From a bacterium (GTDB lineage Bacteria; Electryoneota; Electryoneia; Electryoneales; Electryoneaceae): a DNA stretch of 64,000 nucleotides. Both the position numbers and the translations under genes were made by a program. Below are positions 14,352-37,078 of this stretch, in pieces; within the stretch, counting starts at the first letter, position 1, and the number at the start of each line of letters is the position of its first letter. The stretch covers positions 3,872,001 through 3,936,000 of the forward strand of contig CAXXKJ010000002.1 of NCBI GenBank assembly GCA_963675295.2, written 5' to 3'. The notes below the pieces were generated by a model. The model had not been told where the DNA came from. It worked only from the letters and a program-made list of their open reading frames with translations, and did no database searches.

Positions 14352-14416
14352 CATGGCGTGTGACGGTTCAAGTGCGGACAGCGTTTTTCTTGTTATGCTG
14401 CATTTCAAGTGCGGAC

Positions 14417-14575
14417 AATCCCGACCAGCAAGCTGGTCGGGGCACACGCGAACAGGGGTCATCCGTCATCCCCGTTCCGCGGCAACGAAGCTTCCGCGGG
14501 CATCGTCCCGGCTCCCTCCGCAGAAGCGGTTTCTGCCTCGCGGGCACCATGTGACGGCCACGATCAACCGTGGCA
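14417..14575. repeat. Cluster of four co-oriented REP-like hairpins, each ending in GGCA
   Basis: Family A at 14417-14444; ccgcgg..ccgcgg-gca 14477-14502; ccgc..gcgg-gca 14518-14546; ccacg..cgtgg-ca 14558-14575. Confidence 0.65.
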
Positions 14576-14580
14576 CGTGC

Positions 14581-15630
14581 CTACTCCTCCAACCGCGCCT
14601 TGAGCGTGTCGATGGTCGGGATTGGGGATGGGTCCACCCCCTGCGCCAACGCCAGCCAGTAGCTCAGCCAGTCGCCGATCACGGTCAGCTCCATCATCCG
14701 CGCGAGGGTACTCTGCGTGCGTGGCGTAATGGTCTGCGCGGTCCACCCGGCGGCGCGCGCGAGCTCAGCGGTAAGCGGGATGCGTTTGCGGACATCAGCG
14801 GGTGCGTCCGGATCGTCCAGCAGGATCACGTCGTACCACTGCCCCCACTCCCCGCCTTCGACGTACGGCACCACCTCGTTGTGGTTCATCTCCGGCATCA
14901 CGCCCCATTGCGCCGCACGTTTGGCGTTCTCGTTGATCTGCGCCGCCCAGCGACGTGCGACGGGGACAAGCGTCCCGCTGCCGTAAATCATAGGGTGCTT
15001 CTTCAACGTCTCGGTGAGGAAGCCGTACACCGGGTGGTCGATCCCCTCCGGCGCAACGGACAGCGTGTCGGTCAGTTCGTTGATGACCTGCAGCGTTTCC
15101 TTGTACGCTTCGTCCGTGATCGTAACCCAGCCATGCTGCTGGAACGCACCCAGCGCGGTCGAGAACGCTTCGCCGAGAGCCGCGCGTGGCATGCGGCCAC
15201 CATGCACGGTCCATGTCTCAAAGCCGATCTCCTTCGCCATCGCCGCCAGTTTGCCGCCGGAGGTGAGGGCGTAGAGGGTGCAACCGCGGTCGATTGCTTC
15301 CTGTGCGGTGGCAAGGGTTTCCGCGGTGTTGCCGGAATAGCTGGCGAGGATGACAGCGGTGCCGGAGCCTGCCCATTTCGGCAACGGGCCGCCGCGATGA
15401 ACGGTCAACGGGAACGGCGCGGAGTCGCTGAGCAATCCCGCGAGGAAGTCGCCGCCGATGGCGCTGCCGCCCATGCCGGCCCAGATGACGGCGGATGGAA
15501 CGGGTGCGTCCGGGTAAGCTTTCGCCGCTTCCTGTCCCTGCGCCCAGCCGGTGCGGACCTGATCGGGCCAGGAGAGGATGTCGGCGTGCATATTTCGAGC
15601 ATCCACATCCCGTTTCTCGCTGAACTCCAT
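14581..15630 (-). CDS. Bifunctional phosphoglucose/phosphomannose isomerase (SIS family)
   Basis: GMGGSAIGG, SYSGNTAET, MPRAA, RW..QINENAK, PEMNHNE, GVDP; GGAGG RBS. Confidence 0.93.
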   Translation of the reverse strand: MEFSEKRDVDARNMHADILSWPDQVRTGWAQGQEAAKAYPDAPVPSAVIWAGMGGSAIGGDFLAGLLSDSAPFPLTVHRGGPLPKWAGSGTAVILASYSGNTAETLATAQEAIDRGCTLYALTSGGKLAAMAKEIGFETWTVHGGRMPRAALGEAFSTALGAFQQHGWVTITDEAYKETLQVINELTDTLSVAPEGIDHPVYGFLTETLKKHPMIYGSGTLVPVARRWAAQINENAKRAAQWGVMPEMNHNEVVPYVEGGEWGQWYDVILLDDPDAPADVRKRIPLTAELARAAGWTAQTITPRTQSTLARMMELTVIGDWLSYWLALAQGVDPSPIPTIDTLKARLEE

Positions 15631-16026
15631 CCTTCCTCCGAGATTTGTATGACAATTGTGTGTCTCTTGCACTCATCTTCCGCGCTGCAACGGATTCCTG
15701 GTTTTCATCCAGGCTCGTTCCAGCGGAGTGGTAAGCTACGGAAATCGTGTACGCCAAGGTGCGGCAAACTCAGTCCTCTCACAGTCTCTCAGCGATTCCG
15801 ATTTGATGCCGAGTTGACCGGTCTGTGCCGTATGCGTATGTTTGCAAGCCCTAACTTTGATCGATACGTGAGAATCAGCCTGCGAGAGGGTGGAATTGAA
15901 ACGCTCGTTTAAAACTCGCGATTGAAAGCGTTTCCGGCGGGTTGTAGGTCCGTCAACGAGAAGTAGCGGGTCTGTTGAAAACGGGGTCAGCGAAAAGCAG
16001 CGTCTTGTCCGGTGCTGCCGGATTCG

Positions 16027-16268: not shown

Positions 16269-19200
16269 ATGTCGTTGAATCGGTTTGAACGGATCACTTT
16301 GAGCCCTCTCGGTTTGCGTGAGCCTGGTGTCGCGATCTCCGCGGCGAAGGCTGGATTCACCGGTTTGCTGGACGCCGAGTTCTGCGTTGACGCTGATCGT
16401 GCGCGTGTGTCGCTGGAGATGTTGCTGAAGCGCACGGCGAACGCCACCGGTCGCATCGGGCTCCGTCTGCATGCGGATCAGGTGAAGCCGTTGCAGCCGC
16501 TGCTTGAGATGCTTGCCGATCAGGATCACATCGTGCTGCTGGCTGGCGTGTCCGCGAAGAATCACGCCGACGTGTTAAAAGCGCTACCGAAGGCTGACCA
16601 ACGCTCGATCTGGCTGGAAATTCTCGATTCTCAGGTCGCGACGGAGCTGCTGAAGCAGAAACAGCAGCCGGAAGCGTGGGTGATGAAGGGCCATGAGGGC
16701 GCGGGCTGGGTTGGTGACGACACGACGTACATCCTGCTGCAGAAGCTGGCGAAGTTGGAGAAGACGCCGCCGGTGTATGTCCAAGGCGGTCTGGGTGTGC
16801 ATGCCGCTGCGGCGTGCAAGGTTGCCGGCGCGGACGGGATCGTGCTCGACGACCAGTTGTTGCTGATGCCGGAATCGCCGTTGCCGTTGTCCTGGAAGCA
16901 GTATTTCGAGGGGCTGAACGGCAAGGAAGCGGTTGCGTACGGTGAGCGTCTGCTCGCGCCGGTGCGGGTGTTCGCGCGTCCCGGGTTCCCGGTTAACGAC
17001 GACCTGATGGCGCAGGCGGACGCGCTTGAGGTTGAGAATGACCTGACGGAAAATGGTGTTGCCAAGTGGCGCGGGATTGCGTCCGAGCGGATCGGCTGGG
17101 GCGAACCGGGCGTGCTCGGCTGGCCGGTCGGGCAGGGCATCGGGTTCGCTGCACGCTACCGTGACAAATACAAAAGCGTCGCCAAGCTGTTGCGTGTGAT
17201 CGGCAACGAGATCGACGACCACATTCGTGCGGCGAAAGAGCAGCAGACGATGGCGCCGGACTCGCCGTTGGCGAAGCGGCACCGGACGAAATATCCGTTG
17301 GTTCAGGGCCCGATGAGCCGTGTCAGCGACCGGGCGGAGATGTCGGATGTGATCAGCCGGGAAGGTGCATTGCCGACGCATGCCCTCGGCACGATGCCGC
17401 CGCAGGTTGTCGCTGATTTGCTGAAGAAGAGTGTCGAGCTGCACGGCGACCGGTCGTGGGGTGTTGGCTTCATCGGCTTTTTACCGCAGGAGCTGTACGA
17501 CCAGCAGTTGGCAGAGGTAATCAAGGTCAAGCCGCCGTTCGCGATTATCGCCGGCGGACGTCCCGACCAGGCGAACAAGCTGGAAGAGCACGGGATTTCG
17601 ACGTACATCCATGCGCCGACGCCTGAACTGTTGAAGATGTACTACGAGTCGGGCGCGCGGAAATTCATCTTCGAGGGGCGGGAGTGCGGCGGCCACATCG
17701 GGCCGTTGTGCAGCTTCCCGTTGTGGGAATCGGTGATTGACGCATTCCTCGAGATGGTGCCAAAGGGCAAGGAAGCAGACGTCCAGGTGTTGTTCGCCGG
17801 TGGTGTCAGTGACCGGCTGTCCTCCGCGATGGTCAGCGCGATGGCGTCGCCGCTGGTCGCGCGTGGGATGAATGTCGGCTGCCTCGTCGGTACCGCCTAC
17901 CTGTTCGCAAAGGAATCGGTGGACACAGGGACAATCACGAAGCTGTACCAGGACACGGCGATCAAGTGCGACCGGACGGTGAACATGGAAGTCGGTCCGG
18001 GTCACGCCAACCGTGCCTGCGACACCCCGCTCGCCAGTGAGTTCAATGCGACCCGCCGCCAGATGCTGAAAGACAAGCGTCCCGGCGCGGAAATCCGTGA
18101 AGAGTTGGACCGGTTCACGCTCGGAAGGCTCGCGATTGCGACCAAGGGCCAGCATTTCAGCGCCGAAGGCATCCGTGACGTCGACGACAAGGAGCAGTAC
18201 CAGACCGGCTTTTACATGATCGGGCAGGTGTGCACGATGCGTGACCGTGCGACGACGGTCCAGGAGCTGCACACCGAAATCTGTGATGGCGCGGTTGAAC
18301 AGCTCGACTCGTTCGTGTTGCCGGAACCGGTCAAAGTGCAGGCTGAACCAAACCCGTGCGACATCGCCATTGTTGGCATTGCCTCGACCATGCCGCAGGC
18401 GAAAACGATGGACGAGTTCTGGGAAAATGTGCTGACGCACAAAGATGTGATTGAGGAGATCCCGAAGCACCGTTGGGACCCGGAGATCTACTACGACCAG
18501 GACCGCACCGCGCGTGACCGCAGCTACTCGAAGTGGGGCGGATTTGTCCCGGAAATGGCGTTCAACCCGGTGGCGTACGGCATCGCGCCGATCTCGATGA
18601 GCAGCATCGAACCGATGCAGGTCATGTCGTTGGAGATGGCGAAGAAGGCGTTGGAAGACGCCGGATATGGCGATGGCAGTTACCCGCGTGAACGCACCGG
18701 TGTAATCCTTGGTGCGGCGGGATCGACGGGCGACTTTGGCCTGATGCTGACGGCTCGCACGACGATGGAGCGTTTCGTTCCCTATATCCCGGAGGATACG
18801 TGGGAACGGATGCCGGAGTGGACGGAGGAAGCGTTCGCTGGTGGATTGTACAACGTGACCGCCGGCCGGATTGCCAACCGACTCAATATGAGCGGGATCA
18901 ACTTCACGGTTGATTCGGCGTGTGCGTCCTCGTTGACCTCGGTCGCGATGGCGATCTCCGAACTGGAATTGGGCAACGCCGACATGATGATCACCGGCGG
19001 TGTTGACCTGCAGCAGCATATCGGCAGTTACATCAGCTTTGCGAAGACCCATGCCCTCTCGCCCACCGGCAAGAGCCGCTCGTTCGACAAGAACGCGGAC
19101 GGGATTGTGCTGGCGGAAGGTGTGACGGTGCTGGTGCTGAAGCGTCTGGCGGACGCTGAGCGCGACGGCGACCACATTTACGCCAAGATCAAGAGCTGGG

Positions 19201-22200
19201 GATCGTCCAGTGATGGCCGCGCGAAGTCAATGACCGCGCCGTTCCCGGCAGGGCAACTGCGCGCGTTGCAGCGGGCGTACGAGAAGGCTGGGATTACGCC
19301 GGATCAGGTGGGGATGATCGAGGCGCACGGGACGGGGACTGTCGCCGGTGATACCGCCGAGACGGAAACCGTGCTCTCCCTGTTGAAGGGAAACACGCCG
19401 CCCAAGTCGATCTCGCTGGGTTCGGTCAAGGCGCAGATCGGACACGCCAAGTCGGATGCCGGTGCGGCGGGGATTCTGCGTGCGGCGTTGTCGTTGTATC
19501 ACAAGGTGCTGCCACCGCATTGCCATATCGAGGATCCGATCGATCCGATCGCCGATCCGGAATCGCCGGTGTATGTGCTCAAGGACGGGCGGCCCTGGAT
19601 CAAGCATCCAGACCGGCCCCGGTACGCGGGTGTCAGCGCGTTCGGATTCGGCGGCACGAATTTCCACATGGTGCTGGAAGAGTATGTCGAGGGCGCGAAG
19701 AAAAATACCGCCGGTGCGAATTTCTGGCCGCAGGAATTGTTCGCCTGGCGTGCCGCGAACGACAAGGCGCTGCTGCGTTCGGTGAAGACGGTGCACAAAG
19801 CGTTGTCGGCGGGTGCCGAGCCGCGTTTGCGAGACCTCGCGTTTACGCTGGCGTTGCAGGCGGATGCCGCAGTTGGCAAGCCGGCGCTGTTGACCGTTGT
19901 CGCGAGCAGCCTCGACGAATTGAAGGGCACGCTGGAGAAGGTCATCCAGGAGCTGGACGGCGAGGAAAAATTCCAGCTCGGCCCGAACGTGCAGTTGGTG
20001 CTGGATGCGCCGAAGGATTCGCCGAAGATCGGGTTCCTCTTTCCTGGCCAGGGCTCGCAGTATGTGAACATGGGCCGTGAAGCGGCGATGTACCTGCACG
20101 AGGTGCGGGAAGCGGTGGAAGCCGCGGATGGGTTCACCCGTGACGCCTACCCGAAACTGCTGAGCCAGTTCATTTTCCCGCCGAGCGCGTTCACGAAGGA
20201 CGAGGAGAAGCAGCAGGTCGTCGAGCTGACGAACACGCATGTGACGCAGCCCGCGTTGGGTGCGTTGGCGACCGGTTACCATGATTTCGCGACACGGTTG
20301 GGCCTCAAGGCGGACGGTGTCGTCGGGCATTCGATCGGTGAGTATGTCGCGTTGCACGCCGCTGGTGTGCTGTCGCGCGAGCAGATGTTCCAGTTGATCG
20401 AAACTCGTGGCCACACAATGGCCGAAGCCGCGGCGGACAAGCCGGGCACGATGGCGGCGGTGAAGTTGGAACGCGAGAAGCTGCAGCCGTTGATCACCGA
20501 GTTTGAGGGCGTGGTGATCGCCAACCACAACGCGCCGGAACAGTCGGTGCTGAGTGGTCCGGTTGACGGCGTCAAGGCGGCGGTGAAGAAACTGACGGAC
20601 GACGGCATCACCGCGAAGCTGTTGACCGTGGCCGGTGCGTTCCACTCCAGCCTGTTCGAGCAGTCGCAGAAGCCGTTGGTCGAGGCGATTCAGGCGGCGG
20701 AAGTCAACGAACCGCTGATCCCGGTGTATTCGAACAAGAACGGGTCACCGTATCCGTCCGACCCGAACGCAATCAAGGAACAGCTTTCCGGCCATTTGTT
20801 GGGGCCGGTGGAATTTGTTTCGGCTATCAACACGATGCACGACGATGGCATCCGTGTGTTTGTCGAACTCGGACCGAAGAGTGTGCTGGGGTCGTTGACG
20901 AAGCAGATCCTCAAGGATGATCTCAGTGTCAGCACGGTCTCGTTTGACGCCAACGGCGCGGTGAAGGGCGTGTTGAAGGCGACGGGCCAGCTGCTTGCGG
21001 CTGGCGCGCATGTGAAGCTTTCGATGTTGCATGAGGGGCGCGACGTCAAGGCATTGAACCTCGGCAAGCTGCTGGAAACGAAACCGGCGGAGTTGCCGAA
21101 GACGGCGTGGCTGGTGTCGGGCGGCTGTTCACGTCCGCAGGGCCACCCGATGCACATCGTGGGCAAACTTCCCCCATTGGACAAAGAACTTGCAGATAAG
21201 AGAAGGAAGGAACTGATGGACGAGTTCAAACAGCAGGGCGCTCCGCAGGGAGTGCCGCCGCAGCAGCCGGGTCAGCCGCCGGTTGATCCGATGCAGGCGT
21301 ACCAGCAGAACATGGCGCGCTTCCAGCAGATGCAGCAGCAGTATGGCCCGCAGGGTCAGCCGCCGCAGCAGCCGGGGTATCCGCCGCAAGGCATGCCACA
21401 GCAGCCGGGCTACCCGCAGCAGGGTTACCCGCAGCAGCCGCAGGGTTATCCGCAGCCGGGTTATCCACCGCAGGGCATGCCGCAGCAGCCGGGTTACGGC
21501 CGTCCGCCGTACCCGCAGCAGGGTTATCCTCAGCCGGGGTATCCGCCGCAGCAGCCCGGGTATGGGCGTCCCCCGTATCCGCAGCAGCCGGGCTACCCGC
21601 CGCAGGGCATGCCGCCCCAGGGATACCCGCAACAGCAGCCGCAGGGGTATCCTCCCCAGCAGCAGCCTGGTTATCCGCCGCAGGGCATGCCGCAGCAGCC
21701 CCAGCAGCCACAGATACCACCGCAGCAGCAGGCTCCAGCCCAGGCTCCGGCTCAGCCGCAGCCCCAGGCCGCCGCACCGGCGCCCGCACCCGCCGTTGAA
21801 GCTCCAGCTGCCCCAGCTCCCGCTCCCGCTCCTGCTCCGGCTCCGGCCGCTGGTGGTGCGATGAGCAAGGACGATATCGCCGCGCAGTTGGTCGCGTTGG
21901 TCGCGGAACGGACAGGCTATCCAGAGGATATGCTCGACCTCAACGCCGACATGGAAGCGGATCTCGGCATCGACTCGATCAAGCGTGTCGAGGTGCTGGG
22001 TTCGTTGCAGAAGACGTTCCCGGAAGACCAGGCGGACTCGTTGCAAGCCGAACTTGAGGCGTTGACGCGTGTCAAGACGATGGCCGAGATGGTCGACATC
22101 CTGCAGGCGATGGGCCAGAAGGCCGGTGGTGCGGCTCCCGCACCTGCCGCCGCAGCACCAGCCCAACCCGCAGCCGCCCCGGCGGCAGCACCTGCTCCCG

Positions 22201-24185
22201 CTCCGGCTCCGGCACCCGCCGCAGGCGCACCTATGAGTAAGGACGACATCGCAGCGCAGTTGGTCGCGTTGGTTGCGGAACGGACGGGCTATCCCGAGGA
22301 TATGCTCGACCTGAACGCCGACATGGAAGCGGACCTCGGCATCGACTCGATCAAGCGTGTCGAGGTGCTGGGTTCGTTGCAGAAGACCTTCCCCGAGGAC
22401 AAGGCCGATTCATTGCAGGCTGAGCTTGAGGCGTTGACGCGTGTCAAGACGATGGCCGAGATGGTGGACATCCTCGAGAAGATGGGTCAGCAGGTTGGCG
22501 GAGACACGGTAAACCCTAAGATGGGAGGCGTGCAGCAGCCGCCGTCCAGCCCGGACACGCTCCAGGCCTCCCGGTCCAATGGCGGAGCGGCGGCCTCTGT
22601 CGCGGACGATAACGATTTCAGCGGTGTCGAACGGATCGGGCGGTACATCTTCGAACCGTTCGAGGAGGAACTGCCCCCGCGTGGTGAACTCCCGCAGGGG
22701 CTGATCCTCGTCACCGAAGATGCCGGCGGCATCGCGGCAAACACGATCAACTTCCTCGCGCAGGAAGGCGTGAAAACCGCGATGATCGAGCGAGCGACGC
22801 TGGTTGATCCGGCCCGTCTCGAGCAATTCATCACTGACCAGCGTGAGCAGCACGGTTCCATCAGCGGCGTCCTGCACCTGGCGACCCTCGGCACCGGCAA
22901 CTTGCCGGAAACGATGGATGAGCTGGCGCAGGTGTCGCAGGAGCATGTTTACAGCCTGTTCAAGATCCTGCAGATCGTTGAACTCGATCTGAAGGAGGCG
23001 GCGGACACCGGCGAAGCTCGTGTGCTGCTGGGTTCGACCATGGGCGGCTCGTTTGGTCGGCATGGCCAGTCGAAGGCCGTTCCGACAGCGGCGTCCGGCC
23101 TCGGCATTTTGAAGACGCTGGTCATCGAATGGCCGGGTGTGCGTGCCAAGGCGGTCGATTTTGACGACGCGCTCAGCCCGCCGGCGATTGCGAAGCAGTT
23201 GGTGGACGAGCTGCTCGCCGATGACGAACGGCAGGAAGTTGGGTATCCGGGTGGGACGCGGACCGCGTTCCGGCCGGTGGACCGTGCGATTGATCTCAAC
23301 AACGGCGCCGAACCGCTCAAGCTCGAGTCGGACTGGGTGGCAATTGTCACCGGTGGTGCGCGCGGTGTGACCGCGGAGTTGGCGTACGACCTCGCTCGCG
23401 CGGGGATGACGTTGATCCTCTGCGGACGCAGCCCGTTGCCGCAGCCGGAAGGTCCGGAAACGGCCAACCTGACCGAACTTGCCGACTTGCGCAAGCATTT
23501 CATGATGGCGGCGAAGGCGGCTGGCGAGAAGGTTCGCCCGGTCGACATCGAGAAGAAGGTCAACCGTCTGCTCGGTGCACGCGAAATGCTGCGCAACATC
23601 AAGCGGTTCCAGGATGCCGGCGCGACGGTGGAATACCTCAGTGTTGACGTGTCCGATCTTGACAAGTTCGGCGCGGCGCTTGACGGGGTGTATGAACGTC
23701 ACGGCCGCATCGACGCGTTGCTGCATGGTGCGGGTGTGATTGAGGACAAGCTGATCGCCGACAAGCCGATCGAGCAGTTCCACCGGGTGTTTGAGACCAA
23801 GGTCAAGAGCACGTGGATCCTGGCGAAGAAGCTGAAGCCGGAGCAGATGAAGCTGGCGGTGTTCTTCACCTCGATGGCCGGACGATTCGGCAACATGGGC
23901 CAGTCGGATTATGCGTCCGCGAACGAAGCGGTGAACCGGTTCGCGTGGATGCTGAACAACGGGTGGCCGAACGCCCGCATCATGTCGATCAACTGGGGTC
24001 CGTGGATCTCGGGCATGGTGACGGACGAGTTGATTGCAGCATTTGAAGCACGCGGTGTGATTCCGATTCCGCTCAAGGGTGGACGGCAGTTCTTCCTCGA
24101 CGAACTGACCCACGGCTCGAAGGATGAGGTGGAGTTGGTCGCGGGGTCCGGCCTGTGGTCGGCGGATGATCTGAACCGTGTGTGA
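16269..24185 (+). CDS. Pfa-like type I PKS 1: two FabK/NMO-type ER-like barrels - KS - AT - PQGY-rich linker - ACP - ACP - KR
   Basis: EGRECGGH (ER), DSACASS/EAHGTGT/GHAK (KS triad), GQGSQ/GHSIG/AFH (AT), [10 protein letters not shown] x2 (ACP), TGGARGV/YASAN (KR). Confidence 0.95.
21231..21860 (+). repeat. Coding low-complexity region: Pro/Gln/Gly/Tyr repeats then Pro/Ala linker
   Basis: About 11 GYP and 2 GYGRPPY units (e.g. QQPGYPPQG). Confidence 0.95.
21861..22490 (+). repeat. Tandem near-identical ACP domain duplication (21861-~22120; 22233-~22490)
   Basis: [10 protein letters not shown]...MVDIL protein sequences identical except one Q/K; DNA differs mainly at third codon positions. 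Confidence 0.95.
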
Positions 24186-24246
24186 CGGATGACGTTCGCC
24201 GGATCGCGCATGAGACGTGGCGGACGATGGTAACGAACGACAATGC

Positions 24247-24291
24247 GGAGAGGTCCGGTCCGTCACCGGCCCTCTCCTTCCTGTATTTTTT
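24247..24291 (+). terminator. Terminator-like hairpin between the two PKS genes
   Basis: ggagagg(t)ccggt-ccgtc-accgg(c)cctctcc followed by ttcctgtatttttt. Confidence 0.55.
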
Positions 24292-24295
24292 GAGC

Positions 24296-24564
24296 TACCA
24301 CGGACTGAAGTCCGTGGTAAGAACAACGAGCAGCTATAATTACCACGGACTTTAGTCCGTGGTTGGTCCGTGATACGCAGGATGTCACAGTGAACAAGTT
24401 GTCGTCCAGTGAAGGGTGAATTCCTGAGACGGATGTCATCCAGAACTTGGTGTCATCCTGAACGTGGTGAAGGATCTCGTAGTTCACTGGCGGAAAATCC
24501 CGACCAGCAAGCTGGTCGGGGCAGACTCAAATGATCATCCACGACATGAATGTCGTGGGCATGT
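24296..24564. repeat. Mixed REP-like cluster in inter-PKS spacer
   Basis: taccacggac-tgaa/ttta-gtccgtggt x2 (24296, 24341); tgtcatcctgaacgtggtgaaggatct (24451); family A (24496-24523); 32-bp element at 24533-24564 identical to 58611-58642. Confidence 0.8.
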
Positions 24565-24608
24565 TGTACACATCAGGACGATTCGTCCGGGCACAGTTGA
24601 AGGATACG

Positions 24609-27600
24609 ATGAGCTCAGTGAAACGCAACCCTGGCCAGCAGAACATCGCCATCGTGGGCATGGCGTCCGTCTTTCCGAAGGCGCATGACGTCCGTGAATA
24701 TTGGCAGAATCTCGTCGACAAGGTGGACGGGGTGACGGACGGCGTGCCGGAATGGACGCAGCACTATTACGATCCCGAGATGAAGGAAGTCGCCCGGATT
24801 TACACGAAGAAGGGCGGATTTGTCGATCGCGATCTTCCATTTGATCCGCTCGAGTTCGGCATCATGCCGAGCCAGGTTGACGGCACCACACCGGACCATT
24901 TCCTCGCGTTGAAAGCGTGCAAGGACGCGTTGATCGACGCCGGGTACTGGGACGGGATGAAGTCGTTCGACAAGACCCGTACCGGCGTCATTCTCGGCTA
25001 TGGTCCGAACGCCAACCGTGGCAACCTGCTCGCGTTCCAGCATGGCATGGTCGTCGATCAGACGATGGCGATTATCAAGAATCTGCTGCCGGACATGGAC
25101 GAACAGATGATCTATGACATTCGTCATGACATCATGGACGGCCTGCCGATGTTGCGTCCGGAAATCGTGCCCGGTTTTGTCGCGAACGTGCTCACCGGCC
25201 GGATCGCGAACCGTCTCGACCTGATGGGTCCGAACTACATCGTCGACGCGGCGTGTTCGGCGTCGTTCATCTCGCTGGATGCGTCGATCAAAGAACTGCG
25301 CAGCGGACGCAGCGACATGATCCTCGCCGGTGGTGTCAACATGTCGATGCCGCCGCAGATGATGATGGTCTTCTCGATTATTGAAGCGTTGACCCGTGAC
25401 ATCGTGCGCCCGTTCGACAAGCGGGCCTCCGGCGTGCTGCTCGGCGAGGGTATGGGCATCATGGTGCTGAAGCGGTTGGAAGACGCCGAGCGTGATGATG
25501 ACCGCATCTACGCCGTGATCAAGGGAATCTCGCTGGCGTCCGACGGCAAGTCCAAGGGCCTGCTCGCGCCGCGTTTTGAGGGCGAAGTGCTGGCGATGCA
25601 GCGAGCTTATGAGGAAACCGGCATCGACAAGCACACGATATCGTTGCTCGAAGCGCACGGTACCGGGATTCCACTCGGTGATGAGACCGAGGTCAAGTCG
25701 ATCAAGACGGTGTTCGGTGACCGTCCCGAAGACGGATTGCCGATTGGGCTTGGCGGCGTCAAGTCGATGCTCGGCCACTCGTTGATGGCGGCCGGTTCCG
25801 CGGGGATGATCAAAACGGTGCTCGGCCTGTATCACAAGTCGTTGCCGCCGACCTTGTGCGACGAAGTCAGCCCGGCGCTTGAGCTGGAAACGAGCCCGGT
25901 GTATGTGAACAACAAGATCCGTCCGTGGATCAACGGTCAGGATCATCCGCGCCGTGCCGGCGTAAACGCGTTCGGGTTCGGCGGGATCGACGGGCACTGC
26001 ATTGTGGAGGAGTACACCGGCCCCAGCGGCAAGGATCGTGTGAAGTTGCTGGACAAGGTGTGGCCGCATGAACTGCTGGTGTTCCACGGCCGTTCGCAGG
26101 ATGACGTCGTCGAGCAGGTGAACAACGTGATCGGTGTGATCCAGCACCCACGCAACTTCCTGCTGAAGGACATCGCCTATTCGTTGGTCGAGCACGCCAA
26201 GGGCCAGTACGGTCCGGTGCGTCTGGCGGTCTTGATCACGGACAACCGTGAGGACGCGGTCAAGCGTCTTAAGGACGCCATCGAAAAGATCAAATCGGGC
26301 AAGGCCGAACGGATGAAGGGCCGTGGCGGTATTTTCTTTGGCGACAAGGTCCGTGACGGCAAGATGGCGTTCATTTACCCCGGTCACGGCGCGCAGTATC
26401 CTGAGATGTTCGCCGACCTGTGCCGCTTCTTCCCGAAGGTGCGGGAGTGGTTCGATGTGATGGACAGGCTGTTCGTGAAGAACATGGGCATCCGTCCCAG
26501 CGACGCCCTGTACCCGAAGCCGACGGTGCTGACCGATGAAGAACGGGAAGCGCTGGCGAAGGAACTGTTCACCGGCGACTACAGCATCGCGATCACGAAC
26601 TACACCGCCGATGCGATGGATGAGTTGGTCCGTGACACGCTCGGCGTCAAGCCGGACGTGATGATCGGGCACAGTACGGGCGAATTGAACGCGGTGGGAT
26701 CGTCCGGCTATTTCAAGAAGCCGGGCAAGACTGAGCTCGATGAGCCGACGGAGCTGCTGGTTGATGTCTTCACCAGCTTCCGTGATGAACTGGGTGGCTA
26801 CCCGACCGGCGCGTTGCTCGCCGTCGGCGCGGCTGACCACAAGAAGGTGGAGAAAATCATCGCCGACTCGAAGGGCAAGCTGTCCTTCGTGCTCGACAAC
26901 TGCCCGAACCAGGTGCTGGTCTACGGCGCGGAAGAAGATGTGCTCAACGCCAAGCCGTTGTTCGAGAAGGCGGGCGGGATTTGCGAACGGATGCCGTTCG
27001 ACCGTGCCTTCCATACCCCGGAATTCAAGTTGGTCAGCGAGAAGCTGGCGAAGCGGTTCAAGACCGACTGGTTTGACAAGGGCCACACCAAGCTGTTCAG
27101 CGCGACCAAGGGTGATTACTACCCGGACGATCCGAAGAAGGTCCACCAGTGGGCGGCGGATCTGTGGTCGGAGCCGGTGATGTTCCGTGGCGCGATTGAG
27201 AAGCTGTACGAGGACGGTGTCCGCATCTTCGTCGAAGTCGGCGCGAATGCGAACCTGACAGCGTTTGTCAACGACACGCTGATGGGCAAGGACTACCTCG
27301 CGGTCGCGACGAACAACGCGCGCAAGGGCGACCTCGACCAGCTGAACACCATGCTCGCGCAGTTGTTCATCAACGGCCGCGTGCCGCGGTTCGAAGGCAT
27401 GTACGAGCACCGCGAGGTGACCCTCGTGCCGGTCAATCCGGCGGAGATCGAGCCGGAGAAGAAGCGTCCGACGAACCAGCGGCTGGTGCGTGATGTCGCC
27501 ACCATGCGACTCAGCGACAAGATGATGCAGCGTCTGAACGAGAAGTTCCCGCATCGTGGGTTGACCGGCGCAGGCGCAGCGAAGATCATCCCGGAAGCCG

Positions 27601-30600
27601 CTGAAGCGGCGAAGATACAAGATCAGGCAGCTCCGGAAGCGACTCCGGTTGCAAAGTCCGCCAATGGTCAGCCGGCCGCGGCTCCGCAGCCGCATGAGAT
27701 GGCTCCGCAGCAACCGCCAGCGTACGATCCGAGTGGCTACCCGCAGCAACAGCCGATGGTAGATCAGTGGGGCAACCCGTTGCCGCAGCAGCCGGGCTAT
27801 GACCCGTATGCGCAGCCGCAGCAGGCTCCGATGTATGATCCATATGGAAACGGTGGCTTTGATCCGTACACCGGGCAGCCGATCCCACAGCAGCCGTACC
27901 CGGTACAGCAGCAGTTCGACGCGTGGGGCAATCCAATCCCGCAGCCGGGATTTGATCCGTACGCTCCGCCCCCGCCGCCGTATGATCCGTACGCCGCGCA
28001 GATGGGCTATCCGCCCTATCCGCCGCAGCCGATGGTGGATCAATGGGGCAATCCATTGCCGCAGCAGCCGGGATTCGATCCGTACGCACAGCCACCGCAG
28101 CAGCAGTACGACGCCTGGGGCAACCCGATTCCGCAGGACCCGTACAACCCGCAACCGTGGGGACCGGATTTTTTCGTACCAGGCAGTCTGGGGGTTCCAC
28201 CACCTGACCCGTGGGGGTACCAGCCCCAGGCGCCGATGATGTTTGATGCGTATGGTAACCCGCTGCCAGCGGACCCGTACGGCATGATGCCGCCGTATGA
28301 TCCGTATGGCGCGCCGCCGTTTGACCCATACGCACCTCCTCCCCCGCCGGAGATGGGCATGATGCCGCCGTACGATCCGTACGCGCAGCCGATGATGCCG
28401 CCGCAGGGGTTCGATCCGAATGTGTCGCCGGCACCGATGGAGATGCAGGCCCCGCCTGCCCCGGTGATGGAACCGGCTCTGGAAACGGCACCTCCGCAGG
28501 CTGCCGTCGAAGCACCCGCTCCGCCGTCAGCACCGGAAGCCCAGGCTCCGGCCGCTCCCGCACCTGCCGTTCCGGCAAAAGCCGAACCGCAGGCGGATGT
28601 TGAGGCGTTGCGTGAACAGGCGCGTGCGGCGATGAACGCGCACGACATACCGTTCGGCAAGAAGCCGCCGGTATCGCAGGAGATGCTGGACGCGATGCTT
28701 TCCGACCCGTCCAACCCGGACGCGCCGGATCATCTGCTGAAGAAGATCGATCCGCAGGCGTCGTTGAGTGCGCCGAACTACCCGCGTCCGGCTTCGTCAG
28801 AGTTGCCGTTCGAGCAAGCGTACCCGATGCTTGGCAAGGTGGTCAGCAAGGATGAAAACCTGCTCGAATGTGAGCGGCACCTGAACGTCGAAACCGACCT
28901 CGTGCTCAAGTCGCATGCGTTCGGCGGACCGCCCAGCCGTCACCAGAAGCAGCTGCGTCCGATGGCGATTGTACCGTTCGTGATGAGCCTCGAGACGTGC
29001 GCCGAAGCGGCCACGTACCTGATGGACGGCACCAAGCACGTCAAGACGTTCAAGATGATCCGCGGCCACCGTTGGCTGGCGCTGACCGACGGCACGCTCG
29101 ACATCCTGATCAAGGCGAAGAAGCTGAAGGATCTTGAGGACGGCGACACGCTGGTCCGAGTCGAGATTTTCCAGTATCACAAGCACCGGGATGGCCGTGT
29201 CGAACCGCATCTGACGTTCGAAACGATGGCCATTGTCGGCGACAGGGAACACGATCCGGTCGCGCCGATGCCGTTCAAGGTGCCGAATCCGAAGTACTCG
29301 CATTTCACCACCGAGATGCTGTATAACGACGGCATCTTCTACAGCATGAATTATCCGGGCCGGTTCCACGGGCGTCACTTCCGTGCGATCCGGAACATCC
29401 GTCACGTCAGTCCGCACACGATCGAAGTCGATATCGAGGTACCGGACTGGGATGATTTGTTCGCAAACATCCAGGACCCGCAATTCCAGACGGACATTTT
29501 CGTGATGGACGCGGCGGTGTTGCAGGTAGGATTCTACTACACCGAAGTGTACGGGATGGACGCAAACCTCTTCCCGTTCATGATCAAGGAAGCGAGGTTC
29601 TTCGGCGGTCCGCCGCCGAAGGGCCGGAAGCTGATCGGGCGCGCGGTGATGCGTTTGACCGGAATCGGTGACATTGAGCTGGACAGCAACCCGTATTTCA
29701 ACTTCCAGGACAAAGATGGGAATGTCATCTACCAGATGGACGACCATTCGCTGGAAGGCTTCCACTTCCCGCCGGAATACTACAAGGCGGTGATGGTACC
29801 GAACATGGGCTGTCTTGAAGGCACAGTGGACATTATCGACGCCGAAACCGGGCACGTTTACACCCACATCGAAGGCTGGCAGAACAGGTACTTCGACATG
29901 CCGGTGCGGTTTGACACGGTGACGTTGTTCATGCACGACTTCACCCTGTCGGAACCGTGGCTGACGGAGAAGACCGGCCTGCGGATGCGGATCAACGAGC
30001 CGTTCGAGGAAGGCCTGCTCGAGGAATCATGGGGTGTCTGGGGCAGCAAGCTGGCGCACACGACGTTGACTGAGGCGGAGAAGAAACAGTATTACAGCTT
30101 CCCGGAAGGCAACCCGCGCCGTCAAGACTGGCTGATGGGCCGGATCGCGGCGAAGGAGCTGTTGATCGACTGGATCATGAAGGAGACGATCGAAGATCGG
30201 TACAACCCGATCGACATCGAGATCCGGATTGATGAGTACGGAAAGCCGTACGGTGTCTGCACTCCGTTGCCGGAGCTGAAGCTGCCGGACTTCTCGCTGT
30301 CGCATTCGAAGCGATACGCGGTGACGGTTGCCGCGAAGGATCTGGACACCGCCATCGGTATCGATTACGAGTGGCTGGACAGTTTCAACTACGACGACGT
30401 GCTCGCCGGCGGTTTCGCGAAGGAGACGATGGACGAGGTGCGTGCGTTACCGGAAGATCAGCGCACGCGTGCTACCGCCGCGCTCTGGTGCAGCAAAGAA
30501 GCGGTCGCCAAGGCGCTCGGCAGCGGGATGAACTACGAGCCGCGCGAATGGGCGATTGACTCGTACGATCTGACCGCCGGAACGGCGTCCGTGCGCTACC

Positions 30601-31910
30601 GGGACAAGTCGTACGGCACGCGTTTCTGGTTCACCGAAGCCGGTGAAGTGGTTGCGGTCTGCGAACTCAGTGGCCGGACGGTTGCGCGTGAATCCGACGA
30701 CAAGGAGGGTGATTCTCAAGCGCTGACAACCGCGCCATCTGAGCACCACTCCGCCCCATCCGCTGAGCAGTCGCCTGACAGCAACGGTTCATCTGCTCCG
30801 GCCGTCACGGAAGACAGCGCCGCTGTCCAGGATGATGGCATCGACTGGGATGATCCGGATCGTGAACCGACCGAACTGGAAGAACAGCTGATCGAGTTGT
30901 GGGAAGAGCTGCTCGATATCGACGACGTCGGGCTGCACGATGACTTCTTCGAACTCGGCGGTGAGTCAGTGCTGGCGGTACGGCTGATCGGACGCGTCGA
31001 GAAGCTGGTCGGGCGTTCGATTCCAGTGGCGAATTTCCTCAAGACGCGTACCGTCGCACAGATGGCGAAGATCCTCTCGGATGAGGATTGGGCGCCGGAC
31101 TGGTCGTCGCTAGTGCCGTTGCGCGCGACCGGCGAACGGCTGCCGTTGTTCTTCACGCATCCGGTCGGCGGGAACGTGCTCAAGTACCGTGAGCTGATCT
31201 CGTTCATTCCCGAGGAGCAGCCGCTGTATGCGTTGCAAGCGCGCGGTCTGGACGGTGAGGAAGAACCGTTCGACAACGTGCCCGAGATGGCGGAGTATTA
31301 CCTCAAGGGCATCCGTGCCGCGCAGGAAGAAGGACCGTACCTGCTGGCCGGTTTTTCCGGTGGTGGGGTGATCTCGTGGGAGATGGCCTTCCAGCTCGAA
31401 CAGGCCGGTGAAGAGGTCGCGATGCTGGCGTTGTTCGACACGTTTGGTCCAGGGTACTACACGTTCGAGATGGGCGGCAGCCGTCTGCCGCATCAGCTGG
31501 AGACGTTCCTCTGGCGGATCGAACTGCACCTGGAGACGATGGCAACGCTCAGCATGCCGCAGAAGATCGATTACATCAGGCGCAAGCTGAAGCACGGCAA
31601 CCGCAAGGGTCGTGGCGGCTCCGGCGGCACCATTCGCAAGGTCGAAGACATGACCTACGAGGCGGTGCTGAGTTACAAGCCGAAGAAGCTGGAGCATGTA
31701 CCGGTGCACCTGTTCCGTGCCAGCCATCAGCCGAAACAGTCCACCGGCGACGAGCTGCTGAACTGGGGACCGTATGTCGGGAAGGGCAACCTGTCGGTGC
31801 ACCAGGTACACGGCACTCACGGGCACCTGGTCGAACAGCCGCATGTGGACGGTTTGGCGAAGATCCTGAACGAAGTGCTCGACGGGACACACGCCCGGAT
31901 TGGCGGATAG
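24609..31910 (+). CDS. Type I PKS 2: KS - AT - DPY/DxWGNP low-complexity linker - DH-like - Sfp-type PPTase - NRPS-type carrier - thioesterase
   Basis: DAACSAS/EAHGTG/GHS (KS); GHSTG/RAFH (AT); 'SHAFGG...PFVMSLE' (DH-like); GRIAAKE/YGKP/SLSHS/GIDYE/WCSKEA (PPTase); DDFFELGGES (T); HPVGG/GFSGG/GTH (TE). GAAGGA RBS before ATG 24609; the ORF-track start lies inside a repeat. Confidence 0.93.
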   Translation: MSSVKRNPGQQNIAIVGMASVFPKAHDVREYWQNLVDKVDGVTDGVPEWTQHYYDPEMKEVARIYTKKGGFVDRDLPFDPLEFGIMPSQVDGTTPDHFLALKACKDALIDAGYWDGMKSFDKTRTGVILGYGPNANRGNLLAFQHGMVVDQTMAIIKNLLPDMDEQMIYDIRHDIMDGLPMLRPEIVPGFVANVLTGRIANRLDLMGPNYIVDAACSASFISLDASIKELRSGRSDMILAGGVNMSMPPQMMMVFSIIEALTRDIVRPFDKRASGVLLGEGMGIMVLKRLEDAERDDDRIYAVIKGISLASDGKSKGLLAPRFEGEVLAMQRAYEETGIDKHTISLLEAHGTGIPLGDETEVKSIKTVFGDRPEDGLPIGLGGVKSMLGHSLMAAGSAGMIKTVLGLYHKSLPPTLCDEVSPALELETSPVYVNNKIRPWINGQDHPRRAGVNAFGFGGIDGHCIVEEYTGPSGKDRVKLLDKVWPHELLVFHGRSQDDVVEQVNNVIGVIQHPRNFLLKDIAYSLVEHAKGQYGPVRLAVLITDNREDAVKRLKDAIEKIKSGKAERMKGRGGIFFGDKVRDGKMAFIYPGHGAQYPEMFADLCRFFPKVREWFDVMDRLFVKNMGIRPSDALYPKPTVLTDEEREALAKELFTGDYSIAITNYTADAMDELVRDTLGVKPDVMIGHSTGELNAVGSSGYFKKPGKTELDEPTELLVDVFTSFRDELGGYPTGALLAVGAADHKKVEKIIADSKGKLSFVLDNCPNQVLVYGAEEDVLNAKPLFEKAGGICERMPFDRAFHTPEFKLVSEKLAKRFKTDWFDKGHTKLFSATKGDYYPDDPKKVHQWAADLWSEPVMFRGAIEKLYEDGVRIFVEVGANANLTAFVNDTLMGKDYLAVATNNARKGDLDQLNTMLAQLFINGRVPRFEGMYEHREVTLVPVNPAEIEPEKKRPTNQRLVRDVATMRLSDKMMQRLNEKFPHRGLTGAGAAKIIPEAAEAAKIQDQAAPEATPVAKSANGQPAAAPQPHEMAPQQPPAYDPSGYPQQQPMVDQWGNPLPQQPGYDPYAQPQQAPMYDPYGNGGFDPYTGQPIPQQPYPVQQQFDAWGNPIPQPGFDPYAPPPPPYDPYAAQMGYPPYPPQPMVDQWGNPLPQQPGFDPYAQPPQQQYDAWGNPIPQDPYNPQPWGPDFFVPGSLGVPPPDPWGYQPQAPMMFDAYGNPLPADPYGMMPPYDPYGAPPFDPYAPPPPPEMGMMPPYDPYAQPMMPPQGFDPNVSPAPMEMQAPPAPVMEPALETAPPQAAVEAPAPPSAPEAQAPAAPAPAVPAKAEPQADVEALREQARAAMNAHDIPFGKKPPVSQEMLDAMLSDPSNPDAPDHLLKKIDPQASLSAPNYPRPASSELPFEQAYPMLGKVVSKDENLLECERHLNVETDLVLKSHAFGGPPSRHQKQLRPMAIVPFVMSLETCAEAATYLMDGTKHVKTFKMIRGHRWLALTDGTLDILIKAKKLKDLEDGDTLVRVEIFQYHKHRDGRVEPHLTFETMAIVGDREHDPVAPMPFKVPNPKYSHFTTEMLYNDGIFYSMNYPGRFHGRHFRAIRNIRHVSPHTIEVDIEVPDWDDLFANIQDPQFQTDIFVMDAAVLQVGFYYTEVYGMDANLFPFMIKEARFFGGPPPKGRKLIGRAVMRLTGIGDIELDSNPYFNFQDKDGNVIYQMDDHSLEGFHFPPEYYKAVMVPNMGCLEGTVDIIDAETGHVYTHIEGWQNRYFDMPVRFDTVTLFMHDFTLSEPWLTEKTGLRMRINEPFEEGLLEESWGVWGSKLAHTTLTEAEKKQYYSFPEGNPRRQDWLMGRIAAKELLIDWIMKETIEDRYNPIDIEIRIDEYGKPYGVCTPLPELKLPDFSLSHSKRYAVTVAAKDLDTAIGIDYEWLDSFNYDDVLAGGFAKETMDEVRALPEDQRTRATAALWCSKEAVAKALGSGMNYEPREWAIDSYDLTAGTASVRYRDKSYGTRFWFTEAGEVVAVCELSGRTVARESDDKEGDSQALTTAPSEHHSAPSAEQSPDSNGSSAPAVTEDSAAVQDDGIDWDDPDREPTELEEQLIELWEELLDIDDVGLHDDFFELGGESVLAVRLIGRVEKLVGRSIPVANFLKTRTVAQMAKILSDEDWAPDWSSLVPLRATGERLPLFFTHPVGGNVLKYRELISFIPEEQPLYALQARGLDGEEEPFDNVPEMAEYYLKGIRAAQEEGPYLLAGFSGGGVISWEMAFQLEQAGEEVAMLALFDTFGPGYYTFEMGGSRLPHQLETFLWRIELHLETMATLSMPQKIDYIRRKLKHGNRKGRGGSGGTIRKVEDMTYEAVLSYKPKKLEHVPVHLFRASHQPKQSTGDELLNWGPYVGKGNLSVHQVHGTHGHLVEQPHVDGLAKILNEVLDGTHARIGG
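27669..28600 (+). repeat. Coding low-complexity region rich in Pro/Gln/Tyr/Asp/Gly/Met
   Basis: About 11 DPY and 5 D(Q/A)(W/Y)GNP motifs, followed by a Pro/Ala/Glu linker. Confidence 0.95.
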
Positions 31911-32203: not shown

Positions 32204-33127
32204 TCACTTCTTCTTCGGCTTCGGTGTGGCGTCGTTCCACGCGTTCAAGTCACGTCCGAGGAACTCGGCGAGGCGGTCATTGGCCGGCTTGAAGGTCTCG
32301 ACCAGTTTCTCGCGCACATCCTGCGGCATATCCTCATACTTCTCGCGCTTGATGTTAAGCTGCTTGATGTTGCCCCACACCTTGCCCGCGCCGAGGTTGT
32401 ACTTGAGGCGGTCACGGAGCCAGCGTGTGGCGGCAAATTTGCCGACGGCGATGTGCATCAGGTAAAACGCCTTCAGCGCGTTTTTTGACCGGATCTGCTT
32501 CGCGGTGTTGACGCGTTTGTTGAGGATCTCCAGCGGCACCGGTTCGATCTCGAGGAACGCGCAGAGCTCCTCGTACACTTTCTGGTTGTCCGCCTTGATA
32601 TCGTCCATCAGCACGATGTGCATCTGTTCGCGCGGGAAATACTCGAGGAATTTCTCAATCCAGTTGATGTACTGGAAGTATTCCCGTCCCTCCGGCACCT
32701 CTTCGAACGCCTGCTCGAACGGCATGTCCACCGGGTGAAACGCGCTGTAGTGGTGGTAGAACGAGTACGCCGCTTCGGTCGGATTGCGGAAGTTGAACAG
32801 CAGCTTGGCTTTCGGGTTGTGTTCGTGGATCAGACGCGGGCTGCCCGGATCGTTGAGGTACCGCGGGCTGTACTCACCCTTGATCTGGCCGGGCTGGCAG
32901 TGGTCGAACTGCTGTTTCAGCCACTCGATGCCCTTCGGCTTCATCCTGGTTTCGGTGGTACCGAGACGGTGCTGCATATACAGCGGCATCAACTCGAGGA
33001 AGTAGTCGAGCTCCTTGCCGTGTCCGAGGCAGGCCTGCGGATGTTCATCGAGAATTGCCGCGGTCCAGGATGTGCCCGCTTTTGCGGCGCCGACGCCGAC
33101 AAAGTCCAGCTTGAAGTCACTGCTCAT
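32204..33127 (-). CDS. PAPS-dependent sulfotransferase ST1
   Basis: 5'-PSB GAAKAGTSW, KELDYF, GEYSPRY, 3'-PB FRNPTEAAYS. Confidence 0.92.
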   Translation of the reverse strand: MSSDFKLDFVGVGAAKAGTSWTAAILDEHPQACLGHGKELDYFLELMPLYMQHRLGTTETRMKPKGIEWLKQQFDHCQPGQIKGEYSPRYLNDPGSPRLIHEHNPKAKLLFNFRNPTEAAYSFYHHYSAFHPVDMPFEQAFEEVPEGREYFQYINWIEKFLEYFPREQMHIVLMDDIKADNQKVYEELCAFLEIEPVPLEILNKRVNTAKQIRSKNALKAFYLMHIAVGKFAATRWLRDRLKYNLGAGKVWGNIKQLNIKREKYEDMPQDVREKLVETFKPANDRLAEFLGRDLNAWNDATPKPKKK

Positions 33128-34053
33128 TTGGCGGTGGCCCCTTTCGGTTCGGGCATTTTCAGCCAGTGGCTGAGGTCACGGTTCTGCATCTTGCCAACTT
33201 CGATGATGTCGTCGTGGAATTCTTCGATCAGGCGTGCGCGGGTTTCCAGTTTCATCGGCGGATACTTCGCCTCGACGGAATTCCAGCGGCGGATCTTGCG
33301 GGCGATCACGCTCAGTTTCTTCTCCCGCATCCAGTCGCGGATGTTGCGCATCGTCTGGTTCTTGTTGAACAGGTAGTACACCTGAATCGCGAGGTCACGG
33401 ACCTTTGTCGACCGGACCATTGTGCTCGGGTTCACCTTTTTGTTCACCGAGTCGAGTTCGATCTCGTCGATGCCGAGAAACTCGCACAGCTCGCTGTAGA
33501 CGGCGCTCGAATCGGCTTTGATATCATCGAGGAAGATGAACTTGATCTGTTCTTTCGGGAAGTAGTCGAGGTACCGCTTCATGTGCCGCGAATAGCTGTA
33601 GTACTCGATGTGATCGTTGGTGCGGTCGAGCAGTTCCTCGAAGGTCTCATGCACCGTGTGCATCTGAAAGACCTGGTAGTACACGGAATAGACAGCATCC
33701 ACAGGGTTGCGGATGTTCATGATCAGCTTCAGATCTGGATTGTGCTCGGCCAGCAGTTTCGGGCTGGTCGGATCTGCGAGGTAGCTGGTCGACAGTTCGC
33801 CCTTCAACTGTCCGGGCTCACAGCGGCAGTACTGTTCCTCGTACCACTCCATACCACGGCTGTAATTCAATGAATCGAAATGCGAACCTGTCCGTGGAAA
33901 CACACCTTCCAGCGGATGGTTGCGCATGAAGTAGTTCAATTCCTTGCGTCTTCCGATGCAGGTTTGGGGGTGATCCATCAACTGCTTGGTAACCCACGTC
34001 GTTCCTGCTTTTGCAGCACCGACGCCGCAGAAATCAATCTTGAAGTCGCTCAT
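33124..34053 (-). CDS. PAPS-dependent sulfotransferase ST2 (paralog of ST1)
   Basis: GAAKAGTTW, KELNYF, IRNPVDAVYS; 4-bp overlap with ST1. Confidence 0.92.
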   Translation of the reverse strand: MSDFKIDFCGVGAAKAGTTWVTKQLMDHPQTCIGRRKELNYFMRNHPLEGVFPRTGSHFDSLNYSRGMEWYEEQYCRCEPGQLKGELSTSYLADPTSPKLLAEHNPDLKLIMNIRNPVDAVYSVYYQVFQMHTVHETFEELLDRTNDHIEYYSYSRHMKRYLDYFPKEQIKFIFLDDIKADSSAVYSELCEFLGIDEIELDSVNKKVNPSTMVRSTKVRDLAIQVYYLFNKNQTMRNIRDWMREKKLSVIARKIRRWNSVEAKYPPMKLETRARLIEEFHDDIIEVGKMQNRDLSHWLKMPEPKGATAK

Positions 34054-34276
34054 TCCCTGACTCGTTGTTCAACTCGTTGTTGTCCGATCAGCCTGCCTGA
34101 CCTGGCAGCTGCAGACGGGCCTTTGGAATCGTTGTTGCGTATTCACCGGTAACCAAGTGTGACCCATTGACCCAGCGGAAGTTAGACAGCCGAATGGTTC
34201 CACTCAAGCAAAAGGTTTGGCCAATGCTCACCTTGAGAACACCGTGGCGGAAGGAAGCTGAAAATGCCTGAAAATT

Positions 34277-37061: not shown

Positions 37062-37078
37062 TACTCGGTACAGTCTGA

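Follow-up and report, generated by a model that had tools for sequence, protein, structure and literature searches.

The present locus raises the question why both subunits of a two-gene polyketide synthase (PKS) carry a long, repetitive low-complexity insert behind their ketosynthase-acyltransferase (KS-AT) pair, and whether these inserts are maintained for their protein sequence or are left over from slippage of the DNA. The two genes, PKS1 and PKS2, are adjacent in a 64,000-nt stretch of the genome of an uncultured bacterium of the family Electryoneaceae (the source genome, G000); this stretch is called the window, and all nucleotide positions are positions in it (Table 1). We found that the inserts are real, selected and lineage-specific and are maintained at the protein level. 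The evidence supports the conclusion that they are functional, sequence-constrained disordered modules, which in a single small clade have replaced or extended the Ala/Pro linker that is usual there.

PKS1 has the Pfam domain order ER(NMO)-KS-AT-insert-ACP-ACP-KR with two PP-binding stretches, thus showing the PfaA-type order of KS-AT followed by tandem ACPs and KR, and it passed the TIGR02813 PfaA model (1163.2 bits vs a cut-off of 1010.1). PKS2 reads KS-AT-insert-(DH-like)-PPTase-ACP-TE (Pfam, with the DH-like region assigned via homologues) and scored 530.9 bits with the same model, below the cut-off, its KS-AT part alone giving the match. Since the DH-like region, the PPTase and the TE are found on PKS2 only, and ER, KR and the tandem ACPs on PKS1 only, the two proteins must cooperate in trans.

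The PKS1 insert (residues 1654-1860, 21228-21848) consists of 66 P, 59 Q, 24 G, 22 A and 17 Y among 207 residues, with only one D and one E, and its net charge is +2. Its core is written in P (41), Q (35), G (21), Y (15), M (4), R (2) and nothing else. The insert contains 15 copies of the motif G[YM]P, a count reached in none of 20000 composition-preserving shuffles, and the Tyr residues of the core are evenly spaced (coefficient of variation (CV) of the gaps 0.315 vs ~0.85 in shuffled sequences, 0/5000 shuffles as even). In AlphaFold2 predictions, which were made from 5-row alignments for both subunits, two helices precede the repeats, the second of which (residues 1674-1692, 21288-21344) is Met/Gln-rich and kept in all five orthologues, whereas no secondary structure is predicted for residues 1693-1863, whose predicted local distance difference test score (pLDDT) stays below 50. 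The linker between ACP1 and ACP2 of the same protein, which serves as an internal control, is plain Ala/Pro.

The PKS2 insert is of a different kind. Its core contains no Lys or Arg, 22 Asp and Glu, and 39 aromatic residues (24 Y, 9 F, 6 W). The net charge is -22 for the core and -28 for the whole insert. Six D-x-[WY]-G-N-P/G and twelve DP[YW] motifs were counted in the core, and the pattern D.[WYF]GN[PG], present 6 times, was not found as often in any of 20000 composition-preserving shuffles (maximum 1). The aromatic residues are again spaced more evenly than by chance (gap CV 0.547 vs ~0.85 shuffled, 2/5000 shuffles as even). The AlphaFold2 pLDDT of the insert is mostly below 50-58, with isolated beta-bridges at each motif. 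The two inserts share a Pro content of 30-35% in their cores, a density of about one aromatic per 6-8 residues, and their place in the protein: the Pfam AT match stops at residue 1556 in PKS1 and at residue 926 in PKS2, and the inserts begin 98 and 87 residues later, at 1654 and 1013. The initial annotation, which had described Q/P/G/Y repeats nearly free of acidic residues in PKS1, aromatic and acidic repeats without Lys or Arg in PKS2 and the same post-AT position in both subunits, is borne out by these counts. The aromatics are evenly spaced, as in sticker-spacer sequences; the PKS1 insert is uncharged, but the PKS2 core is acidic, and both are rich in Pro. Its idea of complementary chemistry does not hold if it is taken as charge, the PKS1 insert being neutral and the PKS2 insert strongly acidic. 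We also considered a shared origin of the two inserts and rejected it for want of evidence: their common DNA words are at most 19 nt long (the PQQPG[YF] unit), and the protein comparison gave E=2.2 after composition correction.

Where do such inserts occur? Orthologous adjacent gene pairs were found in four other genomes, and both inserts are at the same places in all four. Three of these genomes, G001 (93% identity), G002 (~72%) and G003 (65%), share the genus of G000, and the fourth, G007 (~60%), is from another genus. The PKS2 insert is also present in a sixth lineage (P0005). A scan of genome contigs returned the same 4 relatives among 129 pattern matches, and a scan of metagenome contigs gave 1 distant match of 27% identity. 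Within the family, 6 of 16 genomes have a PKS2-type gene, and within the phylum 6 of 79. In the next relative, G010, which belongs to a third genus (40-52% identity), both inserts are absent: at the insert place its PKS2-type protein shows only a plain linker, which is short and includes a helix, and its PKS1-type protein has an unlike K/E/P-rich repeat there, on both sides of its ACP (L017, contig 19, ~4000-7000). A helix like residues 1674-1692 of PKS1 was seen between AT and DH both in G010 and in the linker of the distant homologues with KS-AT-DH-PPTase order; PKS2 has no such Met/Gln-rich helix, and the insert occupies its place.

Among 21 PKS2-type proteins obtained from a search of 5.8 billion, a Pro-rich aromatic window was present in 5, all of them close ones, and in 0/16 of the distant ones (25-31% identity, KS-AT-DH-PPTase, ~1650 aa). 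For PKS1, 1 of the 120 homologues listed has the insert type, namely the orthologue (a window-based count over all 120). The AT-to-ACP linkers of PfaA-type proteins consist mostly of Ala/Pro, and their median length is 122 aa (n=31, being the 30 of the 120 listed homologues for which the motif-based parse worked, plus the query; three parsed linkers of 590-668 aa probably contain extra domains), and in more distant relatives the linkers are either plain Ala/Pro or of mixed composition. Moreover, the tandem-ACP linkers of PfaA are described in the available part of PMC3585217 as flexible and unstructured by small-angle X-ray scattering and circular dichroism, in a beads-on-a-string arrangement. 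Such linkers resemble the present inserts in enzyme family, in the AT-ACP or ACP-ACP place and in being unstructured, and the tail of each insert is also plain Ala/Pro, but the cores are Q/P/G/Y or aromatic-acidic and evolve 2-5 times more slowly than the adjoining Ala/Pro sequence. The notion that PKS linkers are usually plain Ala/Pro thus agrees with the 31 parsed linkers and with the ACP1-ACP2 linker of PKS1 itself, and the comparison with homologues, which had been proposed as a check, places the inserts in close orthologues only.

The repeats are not a habit of the host genome either. In a six-frame scan of open reading frames (ORFs) of at least 100 aa in G000, repeats passed in the two PKS ORFs only, and one further ORF had 4 loose DPY-type matches; a genome-wide repeat habit was ruled out in this set. 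At the DNA level, Tandem Repeats Finder reported repeats of 61-79% match in the PKS1 insert and almost none in the PKS2 insert. The four QPGYPPQG units of PKS1 and the five DxWGNP[LI]P units of PKS2 are encoded by differing codons, with the same codon usage as the rest of each gene. In contigs of public runs, the window sequence runs unaltered through both inserts in two samples, and the indels seen in contigs of relatives (24, 27 and 12 nt) are all multiples of three.

Comparison of G000 with G001 gave a dN/dS (ratio of nonsynonymous to synonymous rates) of 0.027 for residues 1654-1810 of the PKS1 insert (dS 0.37, 3/152 amino acid differences, all 3 of them P/Q swaps), vs 0.032-0.061 for the catalytic domains ER, KS, AT and KR (dS 0.24-0.50, 64/1602 differences; the KS alone 0.032) and 0.135 for the Ala/Pro spacer beside it (dS 0.58, 6/44 differences). 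In amino acid differences the PKS1 insert differs from the spacer (Fisher p=0.0046) and not from the catalytic domains (p=0.27). For the PKS2 core, dN/dS is 0.112 (dS 0.48, 24/237 differences), which is between the catalytic domains of PKS2 (0.029-0.075, dS 0.38-0.49, 50/1545 differences) and the flanks of the core (0.169-0.225, dS 0.89-1.13, 30/98 differences), and it differs from both (p=1e-5 each). Across the five genomes the PKS1 core is held at 110-118 aa with 34-36% Pro and zero acidic residues, where the catalytic domains are only 62-72% identical. The initial annotation had read the synonymous variation between units as protein-level maintenance rather than fresh slippage, and this stands for both inserts, given identical peptides with differing codons, degenerate DNA repeats and dN/dS values below those of the Ala/Pro spacers. 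It had also named free variation or absence of the inserts in close orthologues among the outcomes that would speak against its interpretation; nothing of the kind was seen for PKS1, whereas the PKS2 core varies in part, in its length and in its strict motif.

What the inserts do can be put only tentatively. We incline, with not quite even confidence, to the reading that both are proline-stiffened tethers with evenly spaced aromatic contact points, the tether and contact roles being the part that we infer. Both inserts are part of the linker that comes after KS-AT in the two subunits of what is a PfaA-like iterative synthase made of two proteins, and the contact points would be Tyr or Met in PKS1 and Tyr, Trp and Phe beside Asp in PKS2. 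Because PKS2 alone provides a DH-like region and a TE, the ACPs of PKS1 must visit both proteins, and the PKS1 module of near-fixed length may set the reach of its two ACPs. In PKS2 the module would make the DH-PPTase-ACP-TE half independent of the KS-AT half and free to swing to the partner, and weak multivalent aromatic and proline contacts, mutual or with folded surfaces, might hold the active sites of the subunits in one neighbourhood.

Several points weigh against this reading. Canonical Pfa synthases act in trans without such inserts, which are therefore not needed for subunit cooperation in general. The dN/dS values are from a single comparison, G000 and G001 being the sole pair with unsaturated dS, and for more distant pairs alignment inside repeats can inflate identity. 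Across genomes the PKS2 core may be as short as 108 aa or as long as 246 aa, and that of G007 retains DP[YW] with 0 copies of strict D-x-[WY]-G-N-P; because of this more than twofold length range and the missing strict motif, the exact sequence of the PKS2 core is less constrained. Likewise, Tyr itself is not strictly required in the PKS1 core, since Met replaces Tyr in several units and the Tyr count ranges from 9 to 18 across the five genomes, with Tyr/Met exchange.

Among the other explanations, we consider the initial annotation's own suggestion of a condensate or higher-order scaffold unlikely. Here the two sticker-rich disordered regions would phase-separate or co-assemble and thereby concentrate both megasynthases. 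FUS and the annexin A11 N-terminus are Tyr-spaced low-complexity domains that condense, and the bacillaene synthase of Bacillus subtilis forms one large megacomplex. The intrinsic disorder that defines the sticker-spacer class is predicted by AlphaFold2 for both inserts; their sequence is under selection, their aromatics are regularly placed, the PKS1 insert is uncharged and G/Q/Y-rich with aromatics evenly at about one per 7-8 residues as in FUS and annexin A11, and the two inserts co-occur in one clade, neither being present in G010 or more distant homologues. On the other hand, the host is a bacterium, and the Pro content of both cores is far above that of typical prion-like domains and disfavours amyloid. 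The charges do not complement each other either, because a strongly acidic PKS2 insert faces a neutral one in PKS1, and the acidic insert, with its core of net -22, would repel itself. The joint gain of the inserts is a single evolutionary event, which allows no statistics. The literature that we searched contained no description of disordered low-complexity PKS linkers or of natural PKS condensates. An extended form of the idea, in which the matched aromatic-studded disordered pair gathers both subunits into a condensate-like assembly at the polysaccharide export site, perhaps switched by tyrosine modification through the kinase or the sulfotransferases of the locus, is a long shot.

We regard it as improbable that the inserts are passive spacers, that is, repeat-tolerant linkers of near-neutral filler whose composition reflects a history of slippage. 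The length range of the PKS2 core fits this explanation, and so does the recurrence of QQGYP-type repeats in unrelated proteins: the search with the PKS1 core found QQGYP repeats as linker or tail in 12 of them, including a rhodanese with signal peptide, an M48 peptidase, a cytidine-deaminase-like family, a GYF_2 membrane protein and an FHA protein, none of them a PKS. Further, because the G010 homologue bears a different K/E/P repeat at the same place, these linkers appear to be hot spots for repeats. Against it stand the dN/dS of the PKS1 insert, which equals that of catalytic domains and is 5-fold below that of the adjacent Ala/Pro spacer, the nearly fixed length of the PKS1 core, and the DNA repeats, which are old and degenerate; and since no other G000 protein has such repeats, there is no genome-wide slippage habit. 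A further look-alike of PKS1 is found in the tails of octopod opsins, where a Met/Gln-rich helix-like stretch is followed by tandem G-Y-P-P-Q, according to the portion available of bioRxiv 10.64898/2026.07.15.738692. In that portion the layout of the C-terminal PPQGY repeats of cephalopod rhodopsin matches residues 1674-1810 of PKS1, but the cephalopod sequence is the tail of an animal membrane receptor with a much shorter repeat, and homology is not implied. The look-alikes of the two inserts are convergent low-complexity modules, not homologues.

It is quite unlikely, in our view, that the short motifs are handles for a third party, serving as docking or modification sites for a protein of the locus such as the Wzc-like tyrosine kinase, export proteins or a sulfotransferase acting on Tyr beside Asp. 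Tyr sulfation sites typically have acidic, turn-rich and Lys/Arg-poor surroundings, and BY-kinases phosphorylate other proteins. The PKS pair lies inside a Wzx/Wzy-type locus with a Wzc-like protein and five sulfotransferases, the SLBB gene and the 532-aa gene are upstream of the pair in all four orthologous loci, and the PKS2 motifs are repeated 6-9 times in the manner of multivalent short linear motifs. However, G007 has both inserts and yet no sulfotransferases beside the pair, and lacks the strict motif; sulfotransferases and a kinase commonly belong to polysaccharide loci, where their presence calls for no PKS target; and no reader domain was identified, the search for GYF_2 (PF14237) in G000 having found none but having given no signal in the control genomes either.

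A role in solubility or protection, in which the acidic PKS2 insert, as a protectant of dehydrin-like type or an entropic bristle, would keep a very large enzyme soluble under stress, is very unlikely. The idea is drawn from the charge of the PKS2 core, which has no K or R, and from a phmmer search with this core against 1.84 billion representatives. The search gave 3 matches, and because the orthologues of PKS2 were not themselves returned, its sensitivity for sequences of this type is limited. The top match is a dehydrin-like repeat protein of D-[AE]-[YH]-G-N-[VP] units and another, in which D-E-Y-G-N-P is repeated, is a metalloprotease of eukaryote type; the third, P0146, was set aside as probably spurious. 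In the excerpts of PMC8961592 available, the dehydrin Y-segment is given as [D(D/E)(Y/H/F)GNPX], never with Trp and with its role undetermined, and a dehydrin is defined by at least one Lys-rich K-segment. Within that description, the D-x-[WY]-G-N-P-[LI]-P of PKS2 shares D, the aromatic, G, N, P and the hydrophobic X, and is likewise repeated in a disordered context, but its position 2 is Q, A or P, 4 of the 6 motifs have Trp, and it lies inside a bacterial enzyme. With 0 Lys there is no K-segment in the PKS2 core, and we rejected the core as a dehydrin on this ground, Arg being absent too; the likeness is almost certainly convergent. The neutral PKS1 insert is also left unexplained by such a role. 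Finally, it is highly improbable that the inserts pace translation, with Pro-Pro codon runs slowing the ribosome after KS-AT emerges and giving it time to fold and dimerise, since, although polyproline motifs stall ribosomes in an EF-P-dependent manner and both inserts lie directly after KS-AT with their high Pro share and many PP pairs, pacing would require neither the conservation of Tyr, Gln and Gly nor a length fixed at 110-118 aa nor D-x-W-G-N-P, and the rate of synonymous change is normal (dS 0.37-0.48).

Megasynthase linkers are usually treated as passive Ala/Pro strings, and here a disordered repeat linker in PKS1 is conserved as tightly as a catalytic domain while its partner carries a different, motif-bearing one. 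The pair is a natural test case for the role of linker sequence, beyond length, in trans-acting PKS and polyunsaturated fatty acid (PUFA) synthase subunits, and for the bacterial use of eukaryote-style aromatic low-complexity regions to organise biosynthesis. If the condensate-like assembly were true, bacteria would offer a natural example of a biosynthetic megaenzyme that owes its organisation to sticker-spacer sequences; if the inserts aid assembly or yield, they could be usable parts for the engineering of multi-subunit synthases. In addition, the PKS2 motif offers a second system for studying the dehydrin Y-segment motif.

Table 1. Positions of the two synthase genes, their inserts and neighbouring features in the window
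Feature	Position (nt)	Residues	Strand	Basis
PKS1, PfaA-type synthase subunit	16269..24185	2638 aa	+	ORF; Pfam; NCBIfam TIGR02813
AT domain of PKS1	20034..20936	1256-1556	+	Pfam Acyl_transf_1, E=5e-37
Helices ahead of PKS1 repeats	21183..21344	1639-1655, 1674-1692	+	AlphaFold2, block-mean pLDDT 62-73
PKS1 insert core, G-Y/M-P-P-Q-type repeats	21345..21698	1693-1810 (118 aa)	+	composition, pLDDT, dN/dS
Ala/Pro spacer between PKS1 repeats and ACP1	21699..21848	1811-1860	+	composition
Tandem ACP1 and ACP2 of PKS1	21861..22500	Ser motifs 1898, 2022	+	Pfam PP-binding
REP-like palindromic repeat cluster between PKS1 and PKS2	24296..24565		.	blastn vs own genome; extends into first listed PKS2 codons
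PKS2	24609..31910 (likely; listed ORF 24531-31910)	2459 aa (listed ORF)	+	ORF; Pfam
AT domain of PKS2	26370..27308	614-926	+	Pfam Acyl_transf_1, E=8.5e-16
Whole PKS2 insert: Ala/Pro/Glu-rich lead-in, aromatic-acidic core, Ala/Pro tail	27567..28595	1013-1355	+	composition, pLDDT
PKS2 insert core	27693..28430	1055-1300 (246 aa)	+	motif list, composition, aromatic spacing, dN/dS
DH-like region of PKS2	28788..30230	~1420-1900	+	homologues at 25-31% identity: PS-DH PF14765
PPTase, carrier domain and thioesterase of PKS2	30351..31868	1941-2043, 2118-2180, 2205-2446	+	Pfam ACPS, PP-binding, Thioesterase
532-aa ORF directly upstream of PKS1	14314-15912	532 aa	+	without Pfam or NCBIfam match
Five sulfotransferase genes	at 32204, 33124, 38912, 39801, 40693, within 32204-41634		-	
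Wzx	41643-43193			
Wzc-like GNVR + P-loop protein	43407-45632			

The pair is embedded in a Wzx/Wzy-type polysaccharide locus, which is the capsule machinery setting that had been suggested for it. The locus also encodes a Polysacc_synt_2 enzyme, a Wza-like SLBB protein, a GT4 glycosyltransferase, Wzy and a beta-helix protein, and the 532-aa protein is 33-78% identical among the four orthologous loci. Judged by its gene content, it looks like a heavily sulfated polysaccharide locus with an embedded lipid synthase, and because the lipid synthase sits in such a locus, the product may be a lipid-linked sulfated glycan.

With regard to the domains of the two subunits, a Pfam search of the DH-like region of PKS2 gave no match and a PDB sequence search with it gave PPTase matches only; the PPTase itself is matched by holo-ACP synthase chains in the PDB (E=1.4e-9). 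The protein sequences of ACP1 and ACP2 of PKS1 are near-identical, which points to a recent duplication or to concerted evolution. In G003 the PKS2 orthologue is broken by a frameshift or an assembly error into two ORFs of 137 and 2242 aa in different frames (L014, contig 10, near 22603-22609). A third KS-AT-type ORF of 1080 aa is encoded elsewhere in G000 (C2:1436749-1439580, minus strand); it shares ~32% identity with PKS2 in the KS-AT part, is without a repeat insert, and is matched by counterparts in G001, G002, G003 and G007.

Residue numbers of PKS2 follow the listed ORF starting at 24531, but the first ATG of this ORF falls within a unit resembling repetitive extragenic palindromic (REP) elements, and the true start is likely Met27 (24609), because of the N-termini of the orthologues and an AAGGA just upstream of 24609. 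The REP-like units in the gap between PKS1 and PKS2 have 23-93 copies each in G000 by blastn. In contigs of public runs, depth spikes and loose ends were seen at 24423-24693, and a variant of the gap without 128 nt (24323 to 24452) was present in three public runs.

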